Below, one piece after another: positions 1,020 to 21,869 of a stretch of DNA of 24,784 nucleotides (position 1 is the first letter of the stretch; each line of letters opens with the position of its first letter). The notes below the pieces were generated by a model. That model did not search any database and was not told where the DNA came from. It saw only the letters and a program-made list of their open reading frames with translations. The stretch is from a virus (taxonomy: Duplodnaviria; Caudoviricetes). The translations under genes and the position numbers were made by a program. The stretch lies in IMG/VR virus record IMGVR_UViG_3300037479_000127, positions 1 through 24,784 of that record. One strand, written 5' to 3'.

Positions 1020-1433
1020 TCACGCATTCGCTGCTGCTGCCCACGACTTTTCCAACGTTTCCCGTACTACCGTCCCGTTGAGTTCAAGCAGGTCACACAC
1101 CACCTCGAAATCGAATATATCCGTGCGGGACGTGGAGCGAATCCACTCTCGCGCCTCATCTCGACGACGTAGCTGCCCTCCACCCGGAATCGACCGGCTG
1201 AATCCTGTCCCCCTCCTCACCCTCCGTATCTTCCCTGGTGCTTTCTTGCCCGTGGCTGCACCACGGCCTCCCCCATCCTCCGCATCTTGTATTCCTGAGT
1301 ACAGCAACGCGACCAACAGTGCCCGTACACCACTCGAAATAGCCTGCGAGCGGCGTGCCATTTGCTCCGGCAACACCACGTCTTCCTCGAAAGGTACTCC
1401 TGTCGCGCTCCGGTCCCAACGGTCTCTCATCAT
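1020..1433 (-). CDS. Conserved hypothetical protein (LP-Q...LLxA(L/V)L...AxxWI...F-F--VCxxLxL pattern), possible transcription-related factor
   Basis: ATG 1433 overlaps the polA stop (ATGA). Protein MMRDRW...DVVLPEQM...RALLVALLYSGIQD...EAREWIRS...FDFEVVCDLLELNGTVVRETL. Confidence 0.65.
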   Translation of the reverse strand: MMRDRWDRSATGVPFEEDVVLPEQMARRSQAISSGVRALLVALLYSGIQDAEDGGGRGAATGKKAPGKIRRVRRGTGFSRSIPGGGQLRRRDEAREWIRSTSRTDIFDFEVVCDLLELNGTVVRETLEKSWAAAANA

Positions 1434-4045
1434 TGTCTCGTCTTTACCTCCTGTAAGGCCTTCTCGAACACCTCTCGACTCGGCAATGTCTTCCACTCTC
1501 GCATTCCATACCATGTCACGCCAAGCTTCACGCCAATCGGCATAGAGAGAGTCCATTCCCCGCCGGCTCCTGGGTACGTTCGCTCCTCTCCCATCTTCTC
1601 CGTGATGAACCGTGCGATGCTCCACGCATGCGACGGCGGTGTCGTCACGACCACCGAATCGTGTCCTTGCTGCACCAGCTTTGCCCCCGGCCACCGTCCT
1701 CGTCGGCGCTCGTCGTCGAACGGCAGTACCCCACCTTGATTGGTCAGGACGCCGACCTCGTGTTGTGGCAGCCATGCGTACCCTTCTTTATAATCTTCCT
1801 GCGACAGACGCAAACCACGGAAGTAGTATGGCCGACCCCAACTCCCCACGAGCTTTCCGTCCTCGATCATTTGCCTACGCACCCATGCGTGATACTCTCC
1901 CAACCCGCGTGTCGCTGCGTACATCTTTGCCAACCACTCGTCGCATTCGTCCGGGTCCAGAACCAGTCTTCCCTCGGTCTCTACCAGCGCGACCTCCGCC
2001 ATCCGCAGTCCCCCCATCCCGTAGTTGGCAGCATGCCGCACACGCTTCCCGAGCTGTCTCCGCTCAATCGCCTCCTTGTCTCCTGCTTGATACGCTGCCA
2101 GCAACTCCTCATACTCTACGTCAAATATCTTCCCTGCATTCAGCACATGCAAGTCCAGCTCGTATGGAGATGACCGTGCCAAGCGCAGGAGACGTGGATC
2201 CCCGCTCATCCCGTCCACGATCCGACTCTCGCCTTGGCTCTGGTCGAACTCCAACAAGACCTGTCCATAGTCCGCGACGAACATGCGTCGCAGGTCTGAA
2301 TGCCGATCCCGATTCTGGGCATTTACTCCACGATCCTCCAGTGTCTTACTCGCATGCAGTCGGCCAGTCTTTGTCGTCGGACTGTACCGTGAGCGAATGC
2401 GTCCATCATCATCCACCAACCCTGGTCGCACCTCTTGTGCAATCTTCGTATGCTCGCGGTACCCCAACACCAGTTGTCCCATCGGCCGCGCTTTCTTGTA
2501 CTTCCGCATGAGGCGCCGGATTGCCAGCTCGTCGGCCGTCCGTCTCCCCGATCCTCGCCGATAGAACGGCTGGCACTTCAAGGTGTCGTAGAAGTACGCA
2601 TTGACCTTCAGCGGTGACAAGCCCTTCTTCGCCACGAGATCGGTCCCTGCCAATCGTGCCATGTTCTCCCGGATCTCTGCGATGACATGCTGCTCGCGCT
2701 CCTCAATCCCCCGCCGCGCATCCTCGTCCACCGCAAAGCCAGTCTGTGTCAGACGCAAGCACGCTGCCGAGAGCCTGCGGTAATGGTCACGGTAGACCTG
2801 CATCATCCCGGCTGCTTGCAGTCGAGCCTGATATCGCGTCACCAACGCCCGCGTGTAGCACACATCCTTCCCGTTGTACTTCCAGCGGCGCTTCGGGTCC
2901 TTGATCGTCGTGCTCTTTCCCTCCTCCTTCGCCTCGTCCTTCCAGAACCGCACTCGTAAATCGCGAGAGGCACAGTATGCGAGACGATGCTGGTCTCTTG
3001 GATCCAAGCAATGATGCATTTGGTGCGTGTCCCACCGTACGTTCTCCACTCGCACCTGCTTCGTCCACAGCACGAAGAGATCGTAAAGGCCGAAATGAAG
3101 CGCCTTGGCAATCGGATGACGCAGCAGCTCCCTGGCAATCGCCCATGCCCACTGATGGCGCAGATCAAGTGTCAGGGACAGCCCTTCCTTCACCGAGAAC
3201 CCAATGCAATCTATGACGTGCCCCTTCGCCACCGTCTCAATGTCCACCGCGAGACACGCCTCTCGCCCTTCCCGCTTCCAGATGCGAGCTACGTCGGACT
3301 GGAAATCTTGTGCATCGCCGCGCGTCGGGTTCACGACATGCTCACATCGAGGGTCCAGTTGCAGCGACGGGAAGGTGGCATCCCCCCGAATGCGCTCCCA
3401 ATCCCCTCGCCACGCATCGAAGAAGTTTCCGGCACGCAGGATGAAAGCCGGGTGATATGTCGGGATGCACTTGAGCCGCTCACCATTTGGCGTCTTAACC
3501 GCAAACACGCTGCCACGCCAATTACTTATCTTGTCGCGCCAGGCTATTTGAGGCCCGTCCGGTGTCGCCCTGACGCGCCACTTCCCCTTCTTCGTGACCG
3601 GAAGCGGTGCGCGTCGCAGTGTATTGAGAGCCAGATTTCCCAACGGCACAACCACCATCGGGTTCAACTTCTCTATCCTCCTCCAACACTCCTCCTGCCA
3701 TCTCGCAACCGTTGCCGGTGTCAACTTCCACAATGCATTATCCGGTGGCCGTATCTCGATGACGTTCTCTATCCTCACATCCTCTCGTGGCAACCCGAAC
3801 GCCCGCAGACCTTCCCATTTGGCCTGCCCCGTCCAATCCCGTCCCTCCCAGAGAAAACGGCCGGCGGCCCCGATGAAGGGCACACCGGCCTGCTCCTCGT
3901 CCTTCCCGAGCGCCTCACCAAGTATGCACACAGGGGCGGCAAGCGGACCGATCCCGCCCACTCGCCGCCCCCGAGCACTCCCCCACGGTGTCTTCACGAA
4001 CTGATCCCTACTTGGTCGCCGCAGTGCTCCTTTCGATGAAGCCAT
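1430..4045 (-). CDS. polA: DNA polymerase family A with N-terminal family-4 uracil-DNA glycosylase and 3'-5' exonuclease domains
   Basis: UDG4 motifs GEALGKDEEQAGVPFIGAAG, NVIEIRPPDN and PTYHPAFILR. Exonuclease motifs AVDIET, HFGLYD and YNGKD. Polymerase motifs TKTGRLHAS, NAQN, motif A DQSQGESR, motif B RQLGKRVRHAANYG and motif C GHDS. Confidence 0.95.
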   Translation of the reverse strand: MASSKGALRRPSRDQFVKTPWGSARGRRVGGIGPLAAPVCILGEALGKDEEQAGVPFIGAAGRFLWEGRDWTGQAKWEGLRAFGLPREDVRIENVIEIRPPDNALWKLTPATVARWQEECWRRIEKLNPMVVVPLGNLALNTLRRAPLPVTKKGKWRVRATPDGPQIAWRDKISNWRGSVFAVKTPNGERLKCIPTYHPAFILRAGNFFDAWRGDWERIRGDATFPSLQLDPRCEHVVNPTRGDAQDFQSDVARIWKREGREACLAVDIETVAKGHVIDCIGFSVKEGLSLTLDLRHQWAWAIARELLRHPIAKALHFGLYDLFVLWTKQVRVENVRWDTHQMHHCLDPRDQHRLAYCASRDLRVRFWKDEAKEEGKSTTIKDPKRRWKYNGKDVCYTRALVTRYQARLQAAGMMQVYRDHYRRLSAACLRLTQTGFAVDEDARRGIEEREQHVIAEIRENMARLAGTDLVAKKGLSPLKVNAYFYDTLKCQPFYRRGSGRRTADELAIRRLMRKYKKARPMGQLVLGYREHTKIAQEVRPGLVDDDGRIRSRYSPTTKTGRLHASKTLEDRGVNAQNRDRHSDLRRMFVADYGQVLLEFDQSQGESRIVDGMSGDPRLLRLARSSPYELDLHVLNAGKIFDVEYEELLAAYQAGDKEAIERRQLGKRVRHAANYGMGGLRMAEVALVETEGRLVLDPDECDEWLAKMYAATRGLGEYHAWVRRQMIEDGKLVGSWGRPYYFRGLRLSQEDYKEGYAWLPQHEVGVLTNQGGVLPFDDERRRGRWPGAKLVQQGHDSVVVTTPPSHAWSIARFITEKMGEERTYPGAGGEWTLSMPIGVKLGVTWYGMREWKTLPSREVFEKALQEVKTRQ

Positions 4046-4199
4046 GCAGGAATTCCTGCACCGAGCGCCCTACCTTTGCACAGTGCCGCTTCAACCGCTG
4101 ACGCAGCTTGAAGGGAACTCGTACTATCACCACCACCAGCTCCTCCGGTGCATGCGCCGTCGAAGCCTTCCTTCGTGTGCTCTTCTTCGTCTTCGCCAT
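4008..4199 (-). CDS. Ribbon-helix-helix (Arc/CopG-like) DNA-binding protein
   Basis: 63 aa. A beta-strand (VVVIVRVP) is followed by helix FKLRQRLKRHCAKV, a G-R-S turn and helix VQEFLHGFIE. The start is coupled to the ssb stop (TGATG). Confidence 0.7.
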   Translation of the reverse strand: MAKTKKSTRRKASTAHAPEELVVVIVRVPFKLRQRLKRHCAKVGRSVQEFLHGFIERSTAATK

Positions 4200-4930
4200 C
4201 AGTCGTCCTCCTCCTCATCGTCTTCGTCGTCCTCGTCCGACGGCTTCCGTGACGTGGGCTTGGGCTCCTCGTCCTCCTCCTCCTCCTCTTCCACCTCCTC
4301 CGGCTTCGGCTTCCCCTTCTTCCCCTTCGGCTTCTCCTTCCTCTCCGTCTCCTCGTCGTCCTCCTCGACTGGCTGTCGGCTCCTGGCTCGCTTCCCGGCT
4401 GCCGTAGCCCCCTTCGCCTTCTTGCCACTCTTCCCACCACCAGCCGCCGTCGGTTGCTCAGGCGAGACGCCTATGTCGGGACAGTCCTCGTCGCTGGGGC
4501 GGAAAAACAGCCCGAGTTTGTTCCTCGCCGTTGCGCTGTCGTCGAACACGAGGTTGATGGGCGCCACGACCTGCTTCCCTACGGCCGCCTCCATCCACTC
4601 TTCATCGTCGTCGCTGAGCGGTGTTCCTGAGCGGACGAGCAGACGCTTGAGGCGTCCCGGTCCACTCTCGGTCCTACCGCTCCACGACTCCGGCCGCTTC
4701 GCCAGCGGGTCATCCGCGGTCCCGACCGTGATCCAGTCGCGAACCGTGCCACCGGCCAGCTTCTTCGGTTCCACTACCTTGACATCCACGATGTACATGC
4801 GACACCCTGGAGTCTTTGCACCTTGACCTGTCTTCGTCCGTTCGATGTTGGTGATCTCCAACAGCGCCCCGGTGCAAGCAGGCAAGGATCCCCTTTGCTC
4901 CTCCGTCTCATCGAAGAAGCTCTTTCCCAT
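4199..4930 (-). CDS. Single-stranded DNA-binding protein (DUF669-like) with long charged tail
   Basis: OB-fold-like N-terminal half (LPACTGALLEITNIERTKT...MYIVDVKVVEP...RLKRLL...AVGKQVVA) and a very acidic C-terminus (DEDDEDDEEEDD). GAGAGGAG RBS. Adjacent to a Sak4-like ATPase and a nuclease, the usual recombination module context. Confidence 0.7.
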   Translation of the reverse strand: MGKSFFDETEEQRGSLPACTGALLEITNIERTKTGQGAKTPGCRMYIVDVKVVEPKKLAGGTVRDWITVGTADDPLAKRPESWSGRTESGPGRLKRLLVRSGTPLSDDDEEWMEAAVGKQVVAPINLVFDDSATARNKLGLFFRPSDEDCPDIGVSPEQPTAAGGGKSGKKAKGATAAGKRARSRQPVEEDDEETERKEKPKGKKGKPKPEEVEEEEEEDEEPKPTSRKPSDEDDEDDEEEDD

Positions 4931-4952
4931 ACTGCGCTCCTCTCAGGTTCAG

Positions 4953-5072
4953 CCCGCCAGCCCCATGCCGGCGGGAAAATGGTGCAGAAAAGATGGGCGC
5001 GGGAGTGTTTCACACAGGGTAAGGGGGTCACCCCGTTGCAGGTTCTCCCTGCACACCATGCCCCCGCGCCCA
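4953..5072 (-). ncRNA. Candidate structured cis-regulatory RNA in the ssb leader
   Basis: A 10-bp stem (4994-5003 with 5063-5072) encloses three hairpins (5005-5015, 5024-5034, 5037-5053). A possible pseudoknot pairs 5054-5059 with 4979-4984. A further 9-bp hairpin at 4953-4975 has a G-U pair only on the minus strand. Confidence 0.45.
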
Positions 5073-5084
5073 CGCCTTACAGCC

Positions 5085-5891
5085 CTACGCCTTCTCGCCC
5101 TTCCCCGGCTCCTCGTCTACGGTCCCGAGAAGCCTGTAAGCGTTGTCCTTCCCGATCATGTCGAAGAGTGCCACATAGACCGGGCGCGGCATCACTCCCG
5201 CAAGAAAGGTACTCTTTCCCACATGCGGATCGCTGTAGATGCCGATGTGAACCGGCGGCCTGGCACCCTTCCCTCTCCATCCTTGCCACAGAAATTCCGG
5301 TTCGACCTTCCTTGGCACCAGCAAATCGTCCGGCAACCCGATGCAGGTTCCAGCCTGGTACTTCGCATTGCATTCTGTCTGAAGGTACCGGCGCCGTTTC
5401 CCGTCCTCTTCTTTGACGTGCATTCGGTATAGCTCCGGCCATGCAGCGGAAACCATCTTCGTCTCCTCCAGGCGTTTGCCTGGTACGAACGGCTGCCGCA
5501 CCATGGCCCCCTCGGCTTCGATCTTCCGTCGGTGAACGTGGAAGGCAACCCCGACGTTGCAGGGGAGAGCCGGAAGCTGAAGACAGAGCAGCTCCTCGAT
5601 GAGGTCCGCGGCACCTCCGTACCACTGCAAAGGATTCTCGGTGTCGGGGTTCAACTCGTACTGGTGCCATTTCCGAGCGCCCAAGGAAGCAAAGGACACG
5701 GAGTCGAAGATGAAGCTCGCCCACTTTCCCTGTTCCAACTCTTTGACGAAGACCTTGAGGTAGTCGAGTAGGCGCCCCACGCCATCCGTTTCCTCGACGA
5801 TTGGATTTTGGTAGTTGGCGACGCGAATCAGCAGCTTCCCGGTCGCATCCTTCACGTCGTAGTACGGTGTACTCCGTTTGTCCTTCTTCAC
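5085..5891 (-). CDS. Sak4/AAA_24-like P-loop ATPase (ssDNA annealing), circularly permuted
   Basis: Walker B SFIFDSVS (D at aa 63), NVGVAFH and RRYLQT...YQAG..IGLP, with Walker A HIGIYSDPHVGKSTF (K at aa 226). GAGGAGAGG RBS before a GTG start. Lies between the PD-(D/E)XK nuclease and SSB. Confidence 0.8.
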   Translation of the reverse strand: MKKDKRSTPYYDVKDATGKLLIRVANYQNPIVEETDGVGRLLDYLKVFVKELEQGKWASFIFDSVSFASLGARKWHQYELNPDTENPLQWYGGAADLIEELLCLQLPALPCNVGVAFHVHRRKIEAEGAMVRQPFVPGKRLEETKMVSAAWPELYRMHVKEEDGKRRRYLQTECNAKYQAGTCIGLPDDLLVPRKVEPEFLWQGWRGKGARPPVHIGIYSDPHVGKSTFLAGVMPRPVYVALFDMIGKDNAYRLLGTVDEEPGKGEKA

Positions 5892-5937
5892 CTGGCGCCT
5901 CTCCTCGTCTGCTATCTACCGAATGCTTGCGGCGAAG

Positions 5938-6966
5938 TCAAGCAGCTCCGGCAGTCCCGACTCCTGCATGCTCCAACGGTCTCCAGGGCTGCTCGGTGAA
6001 AGTCTTGGCAGCACCAGCCAGGCGTCCACTGCGACACCATTTCTGGAATGGGCAGAACCCGCATGCCCCATTGAAGCGTCCCTGCATCGGCAGCTCGCGG
6101 GCATCTTCGATGGTCCGCACTTGCCCGCGCAGCACGAGAAAGCGTCGAGTCAATCGCCGCGCCGTCGTCTCCCACGCATCCAGCTCGTGCGGCGTGCGCG
6201 TTACGGGGAACAACACATGCTCGGGATGATTGTTCCCGCACTCCGCATAGGTCGTCCCGTGCTGCTTGCACCGTCCGTTGCTGCTGGGAACCTCTCGCAG
6301 GTGAATGCCGTTGATGAACACGCCAGACAGCAGAAGATCCCGCTCTCGTGCAATCCACATCTGACCCGTGAACTGCGAACTGTTTTCCTGCCGTGACTTG
6401 AACCACTCTCCGGTGTTCGAGGTCGTCTTGTGGTCTACACTCCACAACCCGCCCGACTTGCGGTGTTTTCCAACCGCATCCAGTAGAGCGACCATCACGA
6501 CCATTGGAGGGCGCTTCGGGTCGTTCAGCTCCCATTCTTGCTGTACCCGTGCGAGCTTTCCCTCTCGCAGAACTCCCAAAGGAGCGGTCAAAGGCATCTC
6601 CACCTGCGCCGGGTTCACGAGAAACGGCCAATCCTGCAACGGATGCCTTTTCAACCAGAATGCTACGATCTTCTTCACATTCTGATATCGCAGCCGGTCA
6701 TCGGGCGGCACATGCTCCTTCGCCCATTGTCGGTACTCGTTAAGCCTTCCGAGTGCTTCCTCGGTCGAAGCACCCGAGAGCCATGCCGCGAGTACCTCAT
6801 GCACGGCGCTTCCCGCTCGCAGCTCTTTCGCTTCTTCTGCCGGTGCCAGGTGCAAGATGTGCCGCATCGCGACGAGCGTGTCGCACCGAGCCGCTGCTTC
6901 CAGCAACGTGTTATCGACTACCACGTCATCCGGTCGCACCATTACCCCCTCAGTTTCTCGTTGCAC
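5938..6966 (-). CDS. PD-(D/E)XK (Cas4/RecB-like) exonuclease
   Basis: GSAVHEVL, VEMPL, LLDAVG...VDHKTT and QFTGQ motifs. C-terminal CGFCPFQKWC plus an N-terminal Cys fit an Fe-S staple pattern. The start may be ATG 6942. Confidence 0.85.
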   Translation of the reverse strand: MQRETEGVMVRPDDVVVDNTLLEAAARCDTLVAMRHILHLAPAEEAKELRAGSAVHEVLAAWLSGASTEEALGRLNEYRQWAKEHVPPDDRLRYQNVKKIVAFWLKRHPLQDWPFLVNPAQVEMPLTAPLGVLREGKLARVQQEWELNDPKRPPMVVMVALLDAVGKHRKSGGLWSVDHKTTSNTGEWFKSRQENSSQFTGQMWIARERDLLLSGVFINGIHLREVPSSNGRCKQHGTTYAECGNNHPEHVLFPVTRTPHELDAWETTARRLTRRFLVLRGQVRTIEDARELPMQGRFNGACGFCPFQKWCRSGRLAGAAKTFTEQPWRPLEHAGVGTAGAA

Positions 6967-7392: not shown

Positions 7393-7426
7393 CGTAATCG
7401 TTAACTCAACGTAGTCGTTAACTCAA
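7393..7426. repeat. 2 x 17-bp tandem repeat containing the TCGTTAAC box
   Basis: cgtaatcgttaactcaa followed by cgtagtcgttaactcaa. Overlaps the stop of the DUF5664 gene. Confidence 0.9.
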
Positions 7427-7770
7427 GGCCGACGCAGCAACAACTCATGCAAGTAGCCCATCGTGTTGAACAGCAACGCGCAAATGCTTTCTTCTGCCGC
7501 CCGCTGAGACTCGCGGTCTTCGTTTCGATGCCACGTCCACCACGCGAGGAAGTGTCGCCAGGCCGATTTCATGTACACCGCGCGCGGGATCCCTCGCTGC
7601 CAGTTGTCGCTTGCCCGCAACCTGCCATCGACCTGCACCCGATGCTTGTGCATATACTCGTTAAACCGCTGCACTACCAGCGGAGAGAGGAACCCCTCGG
7701 GATCGTGCTTTCCTTCCTCTCCGTTGCGCGTTGCACCCGTCTTGAAGGTACGCACGGTCCGAGTCTTCAT
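7423..7770 (-). CDS. dATP/dGTP diphosphohydrolase-like protein (DUF5664 type)
   Basis: RTFKTGATRN...GKHDPEGFLSPLV...DNWQRGIP...YMKSAWRH...ICALLFN. ATG 7770 has a GGAGG RBS. Confidence 0.8.
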   Translation of the reverse strand: MKTRTVRTFKTGATRNGEEGKHDPEGFLSPLVVQRFNEYMHKHRVQVDGRLRASDNWQRGIPRAVYMKSAWRHFLAWWTWHRNEDRESQRAAEESICALLFNTMGYLHELLLRRP

Positions 7771-7774
7771 GTTC

Positions 7775-7858
7775 CTACCTCCACAACAGCAGCAACACTC
7801 CGACCACCACGGCGAGAGCGGCAGCGACCATCGCCTGTATCTCTCCCGGATCATGCAT
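7775..7858 (-). CDS. 27-aa single-pass membrane peptide
   Basis: MHDPGEIQAMVAAALAVVVGVLLLLWR. The start is coupled to the upstream stop (TAATG). Below the ORF-track size cutoff. Confidence 0.5.
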   Translation of the reverse strand: MHDPGEIQAMVAAALAVVVGVLLLLWR

Positions 7859-16728: not shown

Positions 16729-18599
16729 CACGCACGCTGCTCCTGCTTCTCCTCCTCGCGCTGCCGGCCCACGCCCAGATCATCCACGAGGCGGGGCGCC
16801 ACGTCTGGCCCTTCGGTCAGATGCAGATTGGCCCGGTGGCGTTCGCGAGTCTCGGCACGACGTGCGCGAGTGGGAATCAGACCTATTGCCCCGATTGCTC
16901 CGTGGGCACTCCCTGCACCGGCGGAGGCTCGGGCGCCTATGCCTCCTGTGTTGGGGGATCGTGGACGTGCATGGCCGGAACGCCCGCCGGCACGGTCGAT
17001 GTCAAAGCCTTTGGTGCTCGGGGAGACGGCACGACCGACGACACCCTCGCCGTGCGTGCTGCGATCACGGCCGGCGCCGGGAAGATCGTCTTCTTCCCTC
17101 CCGGCACCTACCTCATGCGGCCCAACCCCAACAGCGTCACGATGCAGGTGGTGGAGAGTGGGACGCTCATCGTAGGCATCCCCGGCTCGTCCATCCTCAA
17201 GATGGGCGACGGGGCGATGTCCCTGGGGAACCCCGGTCAGCTCCTCGGGAACGTCAACACCGCCGGTGGTCGGGTCGATATCACCGTGCGCGGCATGACG
17301 TTCGATTGTAATGCTCGCGGGAACCCAGGCGCACTCTCGGCCGGTTTCGACGCCTCGACGTTCGCGCCGCAGTGCATCTCCATCGCGCGGTTGACCAACT
17401 TCGTCTTCGACGCCAACCAAATCCTCGACGCGAAGTACGCCGCCCTGACCATCGCGGCGAGCAGCAATTCGATGTTCTTCAACAACCTCGTGTATCGAAG
17501 TGGGCAGGGGTACTGTGACGAGGTGGCCGACAAGCCGTGCGACACGGGAGCGGACTGCACCGGGTCGTGCGTCAAGCCGAATGGAGACGGGATCACGGTC
17601 TTCGGCAGTACGAATACGCTCGTGCAGGGCAATCAGTTCATCAACACCGGAGAAGGGACCTTCTGCCAGCATTCCCTCTCCACCCCCTTCGCAGCCAATC
17701 GAATCTGCAACGTCGTGGGAAATACGGTCGCGTACTACGACGCGAGCGAGATTTGCACGGGGAGCGGAAAGCCCTTTGCGTGCTGCACGGGAGCCCGGAC
17801 GGGCAACGGGGCCTTCGGGACGGTTGGAAACAGCTTGTGCGTCAAAGGGCAGGCGCTCGGAAGCTCCCTTGGCATCCTCGCCAACTTCGGAACCATCGTA
17901 GACAACACGATCCGCAACGGGAACCAAATCAGCGTGCAGGCCCTCGCGGCGAGCACCGACTTCCCGACGACGGACATCACCGTCGCCAATAATGTGAGTG
18001 TGGGAGAACTGGCCGCTTCCGGTCCGGGTGGGTGCATCATTCTCCTGGCGAACATCACCTCGACAACGGCTCTCAAGAACATCACGGTTCGGGGGAACCG
18101 ATGTGATACGACGGAGGTGGCGGGAGTGATGCTGCGAAGCACCAATGCGGCGGGCACCGTGACGATGGAAGATGTCGTCGTGGCCGAGAATGACCTGACG
18201 AAGGTCTGCCAGAACCTCGTGGACTGCGCCGGGATCTACGTGGACAAGCTCGGGGCCGGTGCCCTCGCCCTCAATCGACTTCGCATCTCCCGGAACAACC
18301 TCTTCGACTCTCCGCAGGATGGCGTCAAGATGGAGGGGACCTTGACCGACGTGGTCCTCATGGACAACGACCTCGACACGATCACGGGGGCCAAGTACAA
18401 CTTCACGGCTTCGGCGTCGGTCTTCGTGAGCGACTTCAGCTCGGGGCTCGTCTTCAACGACCTGAATGCAGCCTCCTTCGCCACCGCGACCAACGGCTCG
18501 ACGGTCTACTGCTCCGATTGCACCATCACGAATCCGTGTGCCGGGGCGGGGACGGGAGCCATCGCCAAGCGTCTCAATGGAGTGTGGGTGTGCAACTAG
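16722..18599 (+). CDS. Right-handed beta-helix (pectate lyase 3-like) tailspike/depolymerase-like protein with signal peptide
   Basis: VDVKAFGARGDGTTDDT...VFFPPGTY motif and N/G-rich beta-helix repeats. GTG 16722 has a GGAGG RBS and gives MVARTLLLLLLLALPAHA-Q. Confidence 0.8.
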   Translation: MVARTLLLLLLLALPAHAQIIHEAGRHVWPFGQMQIGPVAFASLGTTCASGNQTYCPDCSVGTPCTGGGSGAYASCVGGSWTCMAGTPAGTVDVKAFGARGDGTTDDTLAVRAAITAGAGKIVFFPPGTYLMRPNPNSVTMQVVESGTLIVGIPGSSILKMGDGAMSLGNPGQLLGNVNTAGGRVDITVRGMTFDCNARGNPGALSAGFDASTFAPQCISIARLTNFVFDANQILDAKYAALTIAASSNSMFFNNLVYRSGQGYCDEVADKPCDTGADCTGSCVKPNGDGITVFGSTNTLVQGNQFINTGEGTFCQHSLSTPFAANRICNVVGNTVAYYDASEICTGSGKPFACCTGARTGNGAFGTVGNSLCVKGQALGSSLGILANFGTIVDNTIRNGNQISVQALAASTDFPTTDITVANNVSVGELAASGPGGCIILLANITSTTALKNITVRGNRCDTTEVAGVMLRSTNAAGTVTMEDVVVAENDLTKVCQNLVDCAGIYVDKLGAGALALNRLRISRNNLFDSPQDGVKMEGTLTDVVLMDNDLDTITGAKYNFTASASVFVSDFSSGLVFNDLNAASFATATNGSTVYCSDCTITNPCAGAGTGAIAKRLNGVWVCN

Positions 18600-19369
18600 A
18601 GAAGCCAGCGGGCCTGCGTCTCGACCTCCCTGTCGAAGCGGAACAGCATCTCCGCGCGACCGCCCGCCTGCGCGCCCTACGTGCCGAGAACGAAGCGCGC
18701 TTCGGGCAGCATCCCTGGCCCTTCCTCTGCGATGCGGTCTACACCCTCGATCCCTTCGCCCGGCAGGAGAAGGGAGGAGGGATACGGAAGTACCCAGGAG
18801 CGACGACGCGCGACCCGGCTCCGCACTGCTCCTGTGTCGAAGGCGGATGCGTCAACTACCTGCATCACATCGTCAACATGTGGTACACGTACCCGCGCAC
18901 CGTCTGGCCGAAGTCGCGCCGTCTCCTCACCTCCTGGACCATGATCGCACTCCATGTGTGGCTCGCTCGCTATCGGCCGGCGCAGATGATTGCCTTCGTG
19001 AGTCAGAAGCAAGGGCAGAATGAGGATGAAGGAGCCGCCGAGCTGGTGAAGCGCGCCCGCTTCATCGAAGACCACCTGCCGGTCGAGGTGCAGCCGCGCG
19101 AGACCCATCGAACGTGGTGCCGGATCTACTATCCGCACAACGGGAGCACGATTCTCGGCATTGCCCAGGGACAGAACCAGCTCCGGCAGCTCGCCATTAC
19201 GGCGTGGTTCGCGGACGAGTTCGCCTTTTGGGAGCGCGCAGGCGAAACCTACGCGGCCAGTATCCCGGCACTGGAAGGAGGAGGGAGGGTCGCGCTCGTC
19301 TCGACAGCAAACCCAGGCTTCATGAAGCAACTGGTGTACGATCAGTGGCATGTGGGGGGAAAATGCTAG
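18590..19369 (+). CDS. terL: Terminase large subunit, N-terminal ATPase part
   Basis: Walker A variant PKSRRLLTSW, Walker B AWFADEFAF and coupling motif VSTAN. GTG 18590 has a GGAG RBS. Confidence 0.85.
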   Translation: MQLEKPAGLRLDLPVEAEQHLRATARLRALRAENEARFGQHPWPFLCDAVYTLDPFARQEKGGGIRKYPGATTRDPAPHCSCVEGGCVNYLHHIVNMWYTYPRTVWPKSRRLLTSWTMIALHVWLARYRPAQMIAFVSQKQGQNEDEGAAELVKRARFIEDHLPVEVQPRETHRTWCRIYYPHNGSTILGIAQGQNQLRQLAITAWFADEFAFWERAGETYAASIPALEGGGRVALVSTANPGFMKQLVYDQWHVGGKC

Positions 19370-20900: not shown

Positions 20901-21869
20901 ATGGAGCCTCTCCCGCGCACCCCGCGCCGCGGGATCGAGCAGTGGCAGAACCCGCGTAACGGCCTCGTCGTCGTCCAGCTCCACTACACCGCCGACGCTC
21001 GCAAGACCTCCCCCGAGTGGAAGTCCCAGGCGTCGGCCAACATGCACCCTCGCGATTGGCGCCGCGAGTACGAGATTGACTGGACGGCGGCGAAGGGCGA
21101 GCCCGTGGTGCCCGAGTACCAAGAAGCGAAGCACTGTCGAGTCTTTCCCTGGGACCCTTCCCTTCGCCTACTCCGCTTCTGGGATTTCGGCTACGTCTCC
21201 CCCGTCTGCCTCTTCGCCCAACTGACTCATTTCGGCCAGTTGCGTGTGCGCCGCGAGCTGGCCCCATTCAACACTCCCCTCAACCAACTGCTCGACGCCG
21301 TGGAATCGGTGACCGTGGAACTGGGCGGTCGAGACGCGCTCCTCGCCCAGCGCGATGCGTGGGATGCTGGCGGCAAGGATGTCGAGGAGCGCCCAACGGC
21401 GTTCGACGCTGGGGACCCGGCAGCAGAGAATCAGACCGACCTCGGGTCGAGTGCAGAGGTCCTGGGTGCTCGGGGTCTCATTCTCCACACCACACGGCCT
21501 GGGACCGAGGTCTCCTATGCAAACCTTCGCGCCCGCTTCTTGCGCGACGTGATGGAGCCGGGGGTTGGACCGCAACCCGCCGTTCTCATCCACCCCGAAT
21601 GCCCTTCCCTTCGCGCCGCTCTTGCCGGCGCCTTCTACCTCAACCCTCTTCCGCCCTATCGTCCCGTGAAGACCCACCCCGAGAAAGACCTGGTGGATGC
21701 ACTCCGGTATGGGGAGGACAACCTCCGCGCTCTCATCCCGTCCCAGGACGCTCGCTGGAAGCAGATGGCTGTGCTCGACCAACGCGAGATGCGGTCGGCG
21801 CCGGTCCCCGCGGACGAGTGGGCTGCACATCAGCGGGCCATGTGGGAGAACATCGTGGGAGGGATGTAG
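20901..21869 (+). CDS. terL: Terminase large subunit, C-terminal part (lid and RNase H-fold nuclease)
   Basis: LHYTAD...WRREYEIDW, RFWDFGY, GDPAA and DLVDALRYG motifs. Confidence 0.85.
   Translation: MEPLPRTPRRGIEQWQNPRNGLVVVQLHYTADARKTSPEWKSQASANMHPRDWRREYEIDWTAAKGEPVVPEYQEAKHCRVFPWDPSLRLLRFWDFGYVSPVCLFAQLTHFGQLRVRRELAPFNTPLNQLLDAVESVTVELGGRDALLAQRDAWDAGGKDVEERPTAFDAGDPAAENQTDLGSSAEVLGARGLILHTTRPGTEVSYANLRARFLRDVMEPGVGPQPAVLIHPECPSLRAALAGAFYLNPLPPYRPVKTHPEKDLVDALRYGEDNLRALIPSQDARWKQMAVLDQREMRSAPVPADEWAAHQRAMWENIVGGM

Follow-up and report, generated by a model that had tools for sequence, protein, structure and literature searches.

The closest described relatives of the protein considered here are the Sak4 proteins of phages, for which a catalytic glutamate after strand 2 and an arginine finger supplied by a C-terminal hairpin are reported as signatures (PMC8093625). 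Among solved structures the best match is the Sak4 protein of Staphylococcus phage 52A (8RC5), which likewise consists of the RecA core only, with both a Walker A motif and a Walker B motif, and in which K229 and R231 are described as acting in trans; in that protein, however, Walker A (Lys41) is N-terminal, whereas ours lies at residues 220-227 of 268, and the trans-acting K229/R231/H232 site of the 52A protein contrasts with the lack of a K-x-R finger and the presence of an extra beta-hairpin in the protein presented here (PMC11846896). Healer, i.e. Gp63 (DUF669) and Gp64 (Sak4-like) of Pseudomonas phage Phi47, is reported in a study that describes repair of CRISPR breaks by a Sak4-like and DUF669 pair; it resembles our locus in bringing together a Sak4-like protein, a DUF669-like SSB and a Cas4-type exonuclease, and differs in the P/Q-rich tail of its SSB, that of our candidate being acidic, and the main text of the study makes no mention of permutation (PMC13687109). 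HK620 Sak4 is reported to anneal with ATP and to be stimulated by its own SSB (PMC5928155), and a Walker A mutant of PA73 Sak4 is reported to have remained active (PMC2896510, PMC5499656). The HK620 and PA73 proteins are like ours, as known from sequence, in profile matches, in size and in the position of the gene ahead of a DUF669-type SSB gene, but the order of elements in our protein is permuted.

As a rule, natural circular permutations are infrequent, ancient and one-off, so that neither their route nor their cost can be studied. YlqF/RbgA, RsgA, NOA1 and LSG1 are naturally circularly permuted P-loop GTPases, and the GTPase permutation is one old, fixed event. Unlike these GTPases, the protein described here belongs to the RecA/ASCE class, and in its Sak4 subfamily the order varies among close relatives and the cut points differ. 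The gene lies at positions 5085..5891 (minus strand) of the window, by which we mean the whole of a linear virus record of 24,784 bp that is approximately 56% complete. A first-pass annotation of this DNA had proposed a circularly permuted Sak4/AAA_24-type ATPase, probably functional, in which the native termini had been joined and new ones opened between strand 2 and Walker B. Here we examine this proposal, together with the distribution of permuted and normal-order relatives.

Results

Architecture of the permuted gene

The open reading frame at 5085-5891 (minus strand) is unbroken, begins with GTG and encodes a Sak4-related RecA-fold ATPase of 268 aa, an assignment based on ORF, profile, BLASTP and model evidence. 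A Shine-Dalgarno-like element, GAGGAGAGG (5898..5906, minus strand), recognised from its sequence only, places GAGGAG (5906-5901) 9 nt ahead of the start codon, in agreement with the intact frame and ribosome-binding site claimed at first pass. No repeats were found flanking the gene or the junction described below. Between the genes for the ATPase and the SSB, a 154-nt spacer (4931-5084, minus strand) is predicted to fold as a long hairpin with several branches (z -2.3; of 200 shuffled sequences, 3 were equally stable), which is possibly regulatory.

Within the protein Walker A (220-227 of 268) comes after Walker B, an order opposite to that of standard Sak4/AAA_24 proteins. Residues 1-205 (5277..5891, minus strand) comprise a beta-hairpin insert, Walker B, a strand whose last residue is H118, loop regions and the block that is natively C-terminal: the hairpin (residues 4-27, 5811..5882, minus strand; predicted strands 9-14 and 20-26) forms the new N-terminus, and is followed by the Walker B strand SFIFDS (residues 59-64, with D63; 5700..5717, minus strand), the strand NVGVAFH (residues 112-118) and RRYLQT (residues 167-172). 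At a junction of residues 206-210 (5262..5276, minus strand) the chain passes from the native C-terminus into the native first strand, and residues 211-257 (5121..5261, minus strand) represent the native N-terminal block, now C-terminal, containing strand 1, Walker A, a helix, strand 2 and a short helix; the P-loop SDPHVGKS occupies residues 220-227 (K226; 5211..5234, minus strand) and the strand after it residues 238-244. The motifs D63, NVGVAFH and RRYLQT were accordingly located ahead of K226, as the first-pass annotation had it, and its placing of the new termini stands in a refined form, the cut falling after the helix that follows strand 2 and before the beta-hairpin.

Comparison with a normal-order relative, P0025, approximately 47% identical to the window protein, resolves the domain into two collinear blocks. 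By BLASTP, residues 4-205 match 76-278 of P0025 (48%, E 2e-62) and residues 211-263 match 18-74 (47%, E 9e-14), and a profile-profile comparison pairs residues 1-205 with 76-278 (probability 100, E 8e-61). When all 268 rotations of the window protein were compared, the best started at 206-211, moving residues 206-268 to the front raising the local score by 116 against a gain of at most 21 when the moved segment was shuffled 200 times; the rotated protein and P0025 then form one continuous alignment, in which the domain is covered once and the link is five residues long. The joining of the native termini, and the in silico rearrangement that had been suggested as a check upon it, are thereby borne out. 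Rotation brought no gain against the distant ZCSE2 Sak4, because only the Walker B block aligns locally with that protein. Positions 4-30 of Pfam AAA_24 (PF13479) align with residues 215-242 (E 5e-4, 20.3 bits, cut-off 27), a score that falls short of the threshold because the match to the profile is split in two, and positions 78-242 of PHROG 124 (Sak4-like) align with residues 22-190 (E 1.8e-8); the normal-order sisters P0025 and P0046 match PHROG 124 in a single piece (E 1e-13 and 3e-20, respectively). NCBIfam gave no match to the window protein, and a sequence search of solved structures returned nothing significant. We conclude that the gene at 5085-5891 (minus strand) is confirmed as a true circular permutant, in which two collinear blocks have been swapped and the native ends are connected by a short link.

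Homologues and predicted fold

A database search returned 24 matches among 561 candidates, i.e. the query, 21 proteins of the same order and two of normal order, and a search with P0025 gave 11 matches, of which ten were normal-order proteins and one a further permutant, so that homologues of both orders, for which a search had been recommended at first pass, do exist. The 21 same-order homologues (47-66% identity, one of them N-truncated) derive from Logan, ENA and JGI assemblies; the same order occurs on contigs of 20-53 kb, and a 42.8-kb IMG/VR contig (L002) repeats both the element order and the operon of the window. One 3,154-nt Logan contig spans 4904-7500 with zero differences, but the run concerned (contigs, not reads) may be the window's own source, for which reason the 21 homologues constitute the real control. 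Since the order is common to these 21 other proteins, that of the window is no misassembly. Cultured phages in GenBank match at most residues 13-205, at <30% identity. When viral, metagenome and genome contigs were searched by peptide pattern for members of the window's clade, one locus (L002) or none came up, and no RNA datasets carrying the window's DNA were present among the matches listed.

An AlphaFold2 model based on the 21-sequence alignment was obtained with pLDDT 82.4 and pTM 0.85, with pLDDT values of 86-95 per block of ten across residues 211-260, i.e. the moved block. Among 48,161 solved chains the top match to this model was 8RC5 (Z 7.2, rmsd 4.1, 155 aligned), which covers model residues 8-207 on chain positions 57-258 only, all of them after the 52A Walker A Lys41; this Z score is middling by the tool's scale and tied with those of RAD51C-XRCC3 (7.0) and MurF (6.7), and the top rows comprise Sak4, RAD51 paralogs, RecA and RadB. 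Foldseek gave weak RAD51-paralog rows only against the PDB (best E 0.05) and, against viral models, 9 rows with E <=0.001, in which AAA_24/Sak4-type proteins match a portion of the chain; the top clusters in an Atlas structure search were AAA_24. The model of normal-order P0025, of lower confidence (pLDDT 58.5), aligns continuously from the Walker A region (8RC5 24-259, Z 9.3; RadB 1-206, Z 9.6), with Z 9-11 against Rad51/RadB/DMC1. Judged from these models, the window protein likely folds like its normal-order relatives, and we infer that K226 lies close to D63 in an intact active site and that the native ends adjoin in the fold.

Recurrence of the permutation

When 1.84 billion representatives were searched there were 227 matches, the best 150 of which were listed. 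Among the 180 relatives collected in all, 66 are permuted, 102 normal and 12 partial, the permuted share (66/180) being inflated because the query is itself permuted. An order-neutral motif scan identified 9 permuted among 37 classifiable loci (164 fetched; seven contigs were already in the earlier set), and a viral scan that was likewise order-neutral showed the permuted order at 4 of 11 subfamily loci, versus 0 of 69 more distant loci. Normal order is that of the majority, so the permuted order is not the family norm, in keeping with the first-pass annotation, and a literature search within freely accessible main texts found no description of a permuted Sak4.

Cut points were analysed in 62 permutants, four fragments having been dropped. 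The chain is opened before the hairpin in 42 of the 62, of which 25 belong to the window's group, and in the hairpin turn in 12, a further 4 being ambiguous between these two positions; the cut falls just before the Walker B strand in 3 and right after the P-loop helix in 1, a single sequence on a 1.9-kb contig. Between fixed profile positions the junction amounts to 4-14 residues, with a median of 8, in the 45 of 62 permutants where it could be measured.

For the construction of trees every permutant was rotated to normal order. FastTree, with 165 rows, gave 30 order changes, 11 of them forced by strong branches. IQ-TREE, with 51 rows that were chosen after seeing the FastTree tree and are enriched for mixed pairs, gave 13 (11 forced; 10 under a mixture model) and rejected a single permuted clade (p 1.5e-70). 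In an unselected DNA-locus set of 11 permuted and 29 normal members, four of the latter added as proteins, there were 4 order changes, 3 of them forced, and a single permuted clade was again rejected (p 2.4e-5). Such order changes count gains and losses together, the two not being separable in these trees. The trees show that element order has switched on several occasions in the subfamily, the cuts lying in three or four distinct loops.

Trees built separately from the Walker A and Walker B blocks have six permuted/normal sister pairs in common, and P0038/P0040 is an example of close sisters that differ in order, with 67-72% identity in the two blocks. The Walker A-block tree has 46 columns, no strong branch and 1 forced change. 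We weighed one origin followed by swapping of blocks and set it aside, as those six pairs are present in the tree of either block, with the proviso that the Walker A block has too few columns to force much. The normal-order group P0025-P0034 nests among the permutants of class A, the window's class, with support 99/99; reversion of this group to normal order is nevertheless not shown, class A monophyly (16 rows) not being rejected (p-AU 0.136; also 0.39).

Intermediates were sought in several ways. Tandem or fused forms were absent from 7,996 candidate proteins of 498-2000 aa, which is weak evidence, lengths of 470-497 aa falling outside the word-index search, and none of the 41 loci with a family match held two family ORFs. 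Terminal redundancy beyond chance was found in none of 164 proteins and in no permutant, and A-B-A or B-A-B genes were found neither among the 180 family proteins nor among the 498-2000-aa candidates or the fetched loci. One normal-order protein, P0084 (445 aa), bears an unrelated 190-residue N-terminal extension and no ATPase duplicate.

Conservation and Sak4 signatures

Conservation was read from alignments of 21, 10 and 30 sequences. Invariant columns in the 21 permuted sequences number 34 and occur in both blocks, and D63, S64, Q171, H215, G225, K226, D244, G247, K248 and D249 are retained in 21/21; H118 is kept in at least 90% of permuted homologues. The protein consists of the RecA ATPase core alone, with 268 aa versus the ~250 expected for Sak4, but both Sak4 signatures are missing from it. 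The glutamate two residues past the strand-2 aspartate is absent, the window protein having D244-M-I246 where ZCSE2 Sak4 has D-A-E, and so is the K-x-R arginine finger, the K-C-R of ZCSE2 aligning to residues 179-185, where neither residue occurs. Read by eye, a K-x-R finger is present at the aligned place in 0/21 permuted and 0/30 normal-order sequences, and the catalytic glutamate is likewise missing from that position in normal-order relatives. As both signatures are missing in either order, their absence is a mark of the subfamily and not an effect of the permutation.

Downstream of D244-M-I246, K248 and D249 are invariant, and this shifted acidic residue may substitute for the missing catalytic glutamate. 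The subfamily is characterised by the lack of a K-x-R finger, a conserved G-K-acidic motif after strand 2 and the extra beta-hairpin, and may, to go by its sequences, use a catalytic arrangement unlike that of other Sak4 proteins. With the arginine finger and the usual glutamate position missing, ATP hydrolysis is uncertain; moreover, as the PA73 Walker A mutant was active, conservation of K226 is no proof of ATP-driven annealing. The earlier judgement that the protein is probably functional is thus favoured by conservation, but qualified by the absence of two textbook Sak4 catalytic signatures across the subfamily, and the window protein most likely works like Sak4 without being a textbook member.

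Operon context

Upstream of the ATPase gene lies a gene for a PD-(D/E)XK exonuclease of the Cas4/RecE type (5938..6966, minus strand; PF12705 E 1.8e-12, PHROG 1218 E 4.5e-13), and downstream a candidate DUF669-like SSB gene whose product has a long acidic tail (4199..4930, minus strand; Atlas match by predicted structure to a DUF669 cluster, TM 0.68), consistent with the nuclease-Sak4-SSB module recognised at first pass. The SSB candidate itself has no Pfam or PHROG match; its orthologue in L002 (phmmer E 6e-62) shows a weak DUF669 match under the cut-off, and its homologous neighbours score 15-22.5 bits for DUF669, for which the cut-off is 21. Also downstream are a ribbon-helix-helix gene and, in the same operon direction, a gene in which a uracil-DNA-glycosylase-like domain is fused ahead of a family A DNA polymerase (UDG-PolA; 1430..4045, minus strand), a fusion that follows the module in L002 and L013 as well. 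Among loci selected because their flanks were available, 8 of each order, the upstream nuclease was present in 6/8 permuted and 7/8 normal-order loci, as was the downstream homologue of the SSB candidate (6/8 and 7/8; E <=1e-3, 16-protein set).

Elsewhere in the window, 7423-7854 (minus strand) gives a weak match, under the cut-off, to a dATP/dGTP diphosphohydrolase N-terminal family (E 2e-4), which, taken with the UDG-PolA fusion, might point to metabolism of modified bases. A 17-nt element containing GTTAAC stands twice, head-to-tail, at 7393-7426, upstream of the replication genes; its two copies are 94% alike and form a possible operator. The large terminase is seemingly split into an ATPase-like part at 18518-19369 (plus strand; PHROG 2 positions 272-414, E 5e-6) and a nuclease-like part at 20901-21869 (plus strand; PHROG 2 positions 412-588, E 5e-4), approximately 1.5 kb apart, and the ORFs between them have no significant Pfam match.

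Discussion

The explanation we favour, and regard as probable, is that the gene encodes a natural circular permutant whose fold is likely that of its normal-order relatives and which, with the exonuclease and the DUF669-like SSB as partners, likely anneals single-stranded DNA; the window protein is probably a real, working permuted Sak4-type variant. Under this proposal the native ends, being neighbours in the fold, would have allowed an in-frame tandem or partial duplicate to be tolerated, and deletion of the outer parts of the duplicate would have left a working gene in the same operon slot. The neighbouring nuclease would then resect DNA ends, the DUF669-like SSB would coat the single strand, and the ATP-bound Sak4-related protein would pair complementary strands for the repair of breaks and for recombination-dependent replication. 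In its effect on function the permutation is most likely near-neutral.

Beyond this, we suggest tentatively, as an idea with a reasonable though less than even prospect of being correct, that chain order is a switchable state: ten or more independent permutations, in three or four loops and sometimes back, would have resulted from crossing-over between alleles of the two orders, which the recombinase could itself promote. A mechanism fed by recombination in this way, in which a single crossover of a permuted (B-A) allele with one of normal order (A-B) produces an A-B-A or B-A-B gene, in frame, that is trimmed to normal order or to a new cut, would let order spread and revert within the subfamily; it refines rather than replaces the favoured explanation, and we view it as conceivable but doubtful. 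The scatter of permutants over the tree, their concentration in one subfamily (4/11 loci versus 0/69 distant ones) and the location of cuts within both blocks would all suit it, and a duplicate made in one step by such a crossover could explain the high frequency of permutation. The normal-order P0025-P0034 group nested among class A permutants (99/99) would also suit it, although that nesting is not forced (p-AU 0.136); the searches yielded no intermediate and no terminal redundancy beyond chance in 164 proteins, and the six sister pairs found in both block trees fit whole-gene descent, not block swapping.

The missing arginine finger and usual catalytic glutamate position, in both orders, could instead mean that the protein is a folded ATP- or DNA-binder but no ATP-hydrolysing annealase, i.e. 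a RadB-like mediator or scaffold whose relaxed catalytic interface is the reason why permutation is tolerated. We consider this unlikely, given that the Walker A lysine, the Walker B aspartate and an invariant D-x-x-G-K-D after strand 2, which could substitute, are kept, and that the gene holds the annealase slot between nuclease and SSB. It is improbable, too, that permutation was selected for an altered surface that escapes host anti-recombinase defences: Sak4 proteins are reported as targets of Stl2 and AbiK/AbiA (PMC11846896, PMC8093625), and repeated origin is what an arms race would produce, but a fold-preserving permutation alters little surface, and permuted and normal-order forms persist side by side. 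There remains the reading, to which we give almost no credence, that the window's order is an assembly artefact or the gene dead. The sole run containing the DNA may be the window's source, and many of the scattered permutants are on contigs of 1.4-5.8 kb, 4 of the 10 checked being single sequences; nevertheless, 21 diverged homologues from three sources have an identical junction position, the 42.8-kb L002 contig carries the same order and operon, the frame, start signal and neighbours are intact, and the cuts fall in loops. For the order in the window, an artefact is ruled out by the independent homologues.

Repeated permutation is the part of these findings that a specialist would find surprising. 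Because close permuted and normal-order sisters exist, together with several cut points, a RecA-fold ATPase is available in which the duplication-deletion model can be tested directly, as can the question whether permutation is neutral. The permutants chart the loops at which the RecA core tolerates opening, the permutation explains why profile annotation misses or under-scores such genes, and the loci provide candidate new annealase-SSB pairs for recombineering. If chain order does prove to be switchable, the subfamily would constitute a natural permutant library of one P-loop enzyme, with normal-order sisters as controls.
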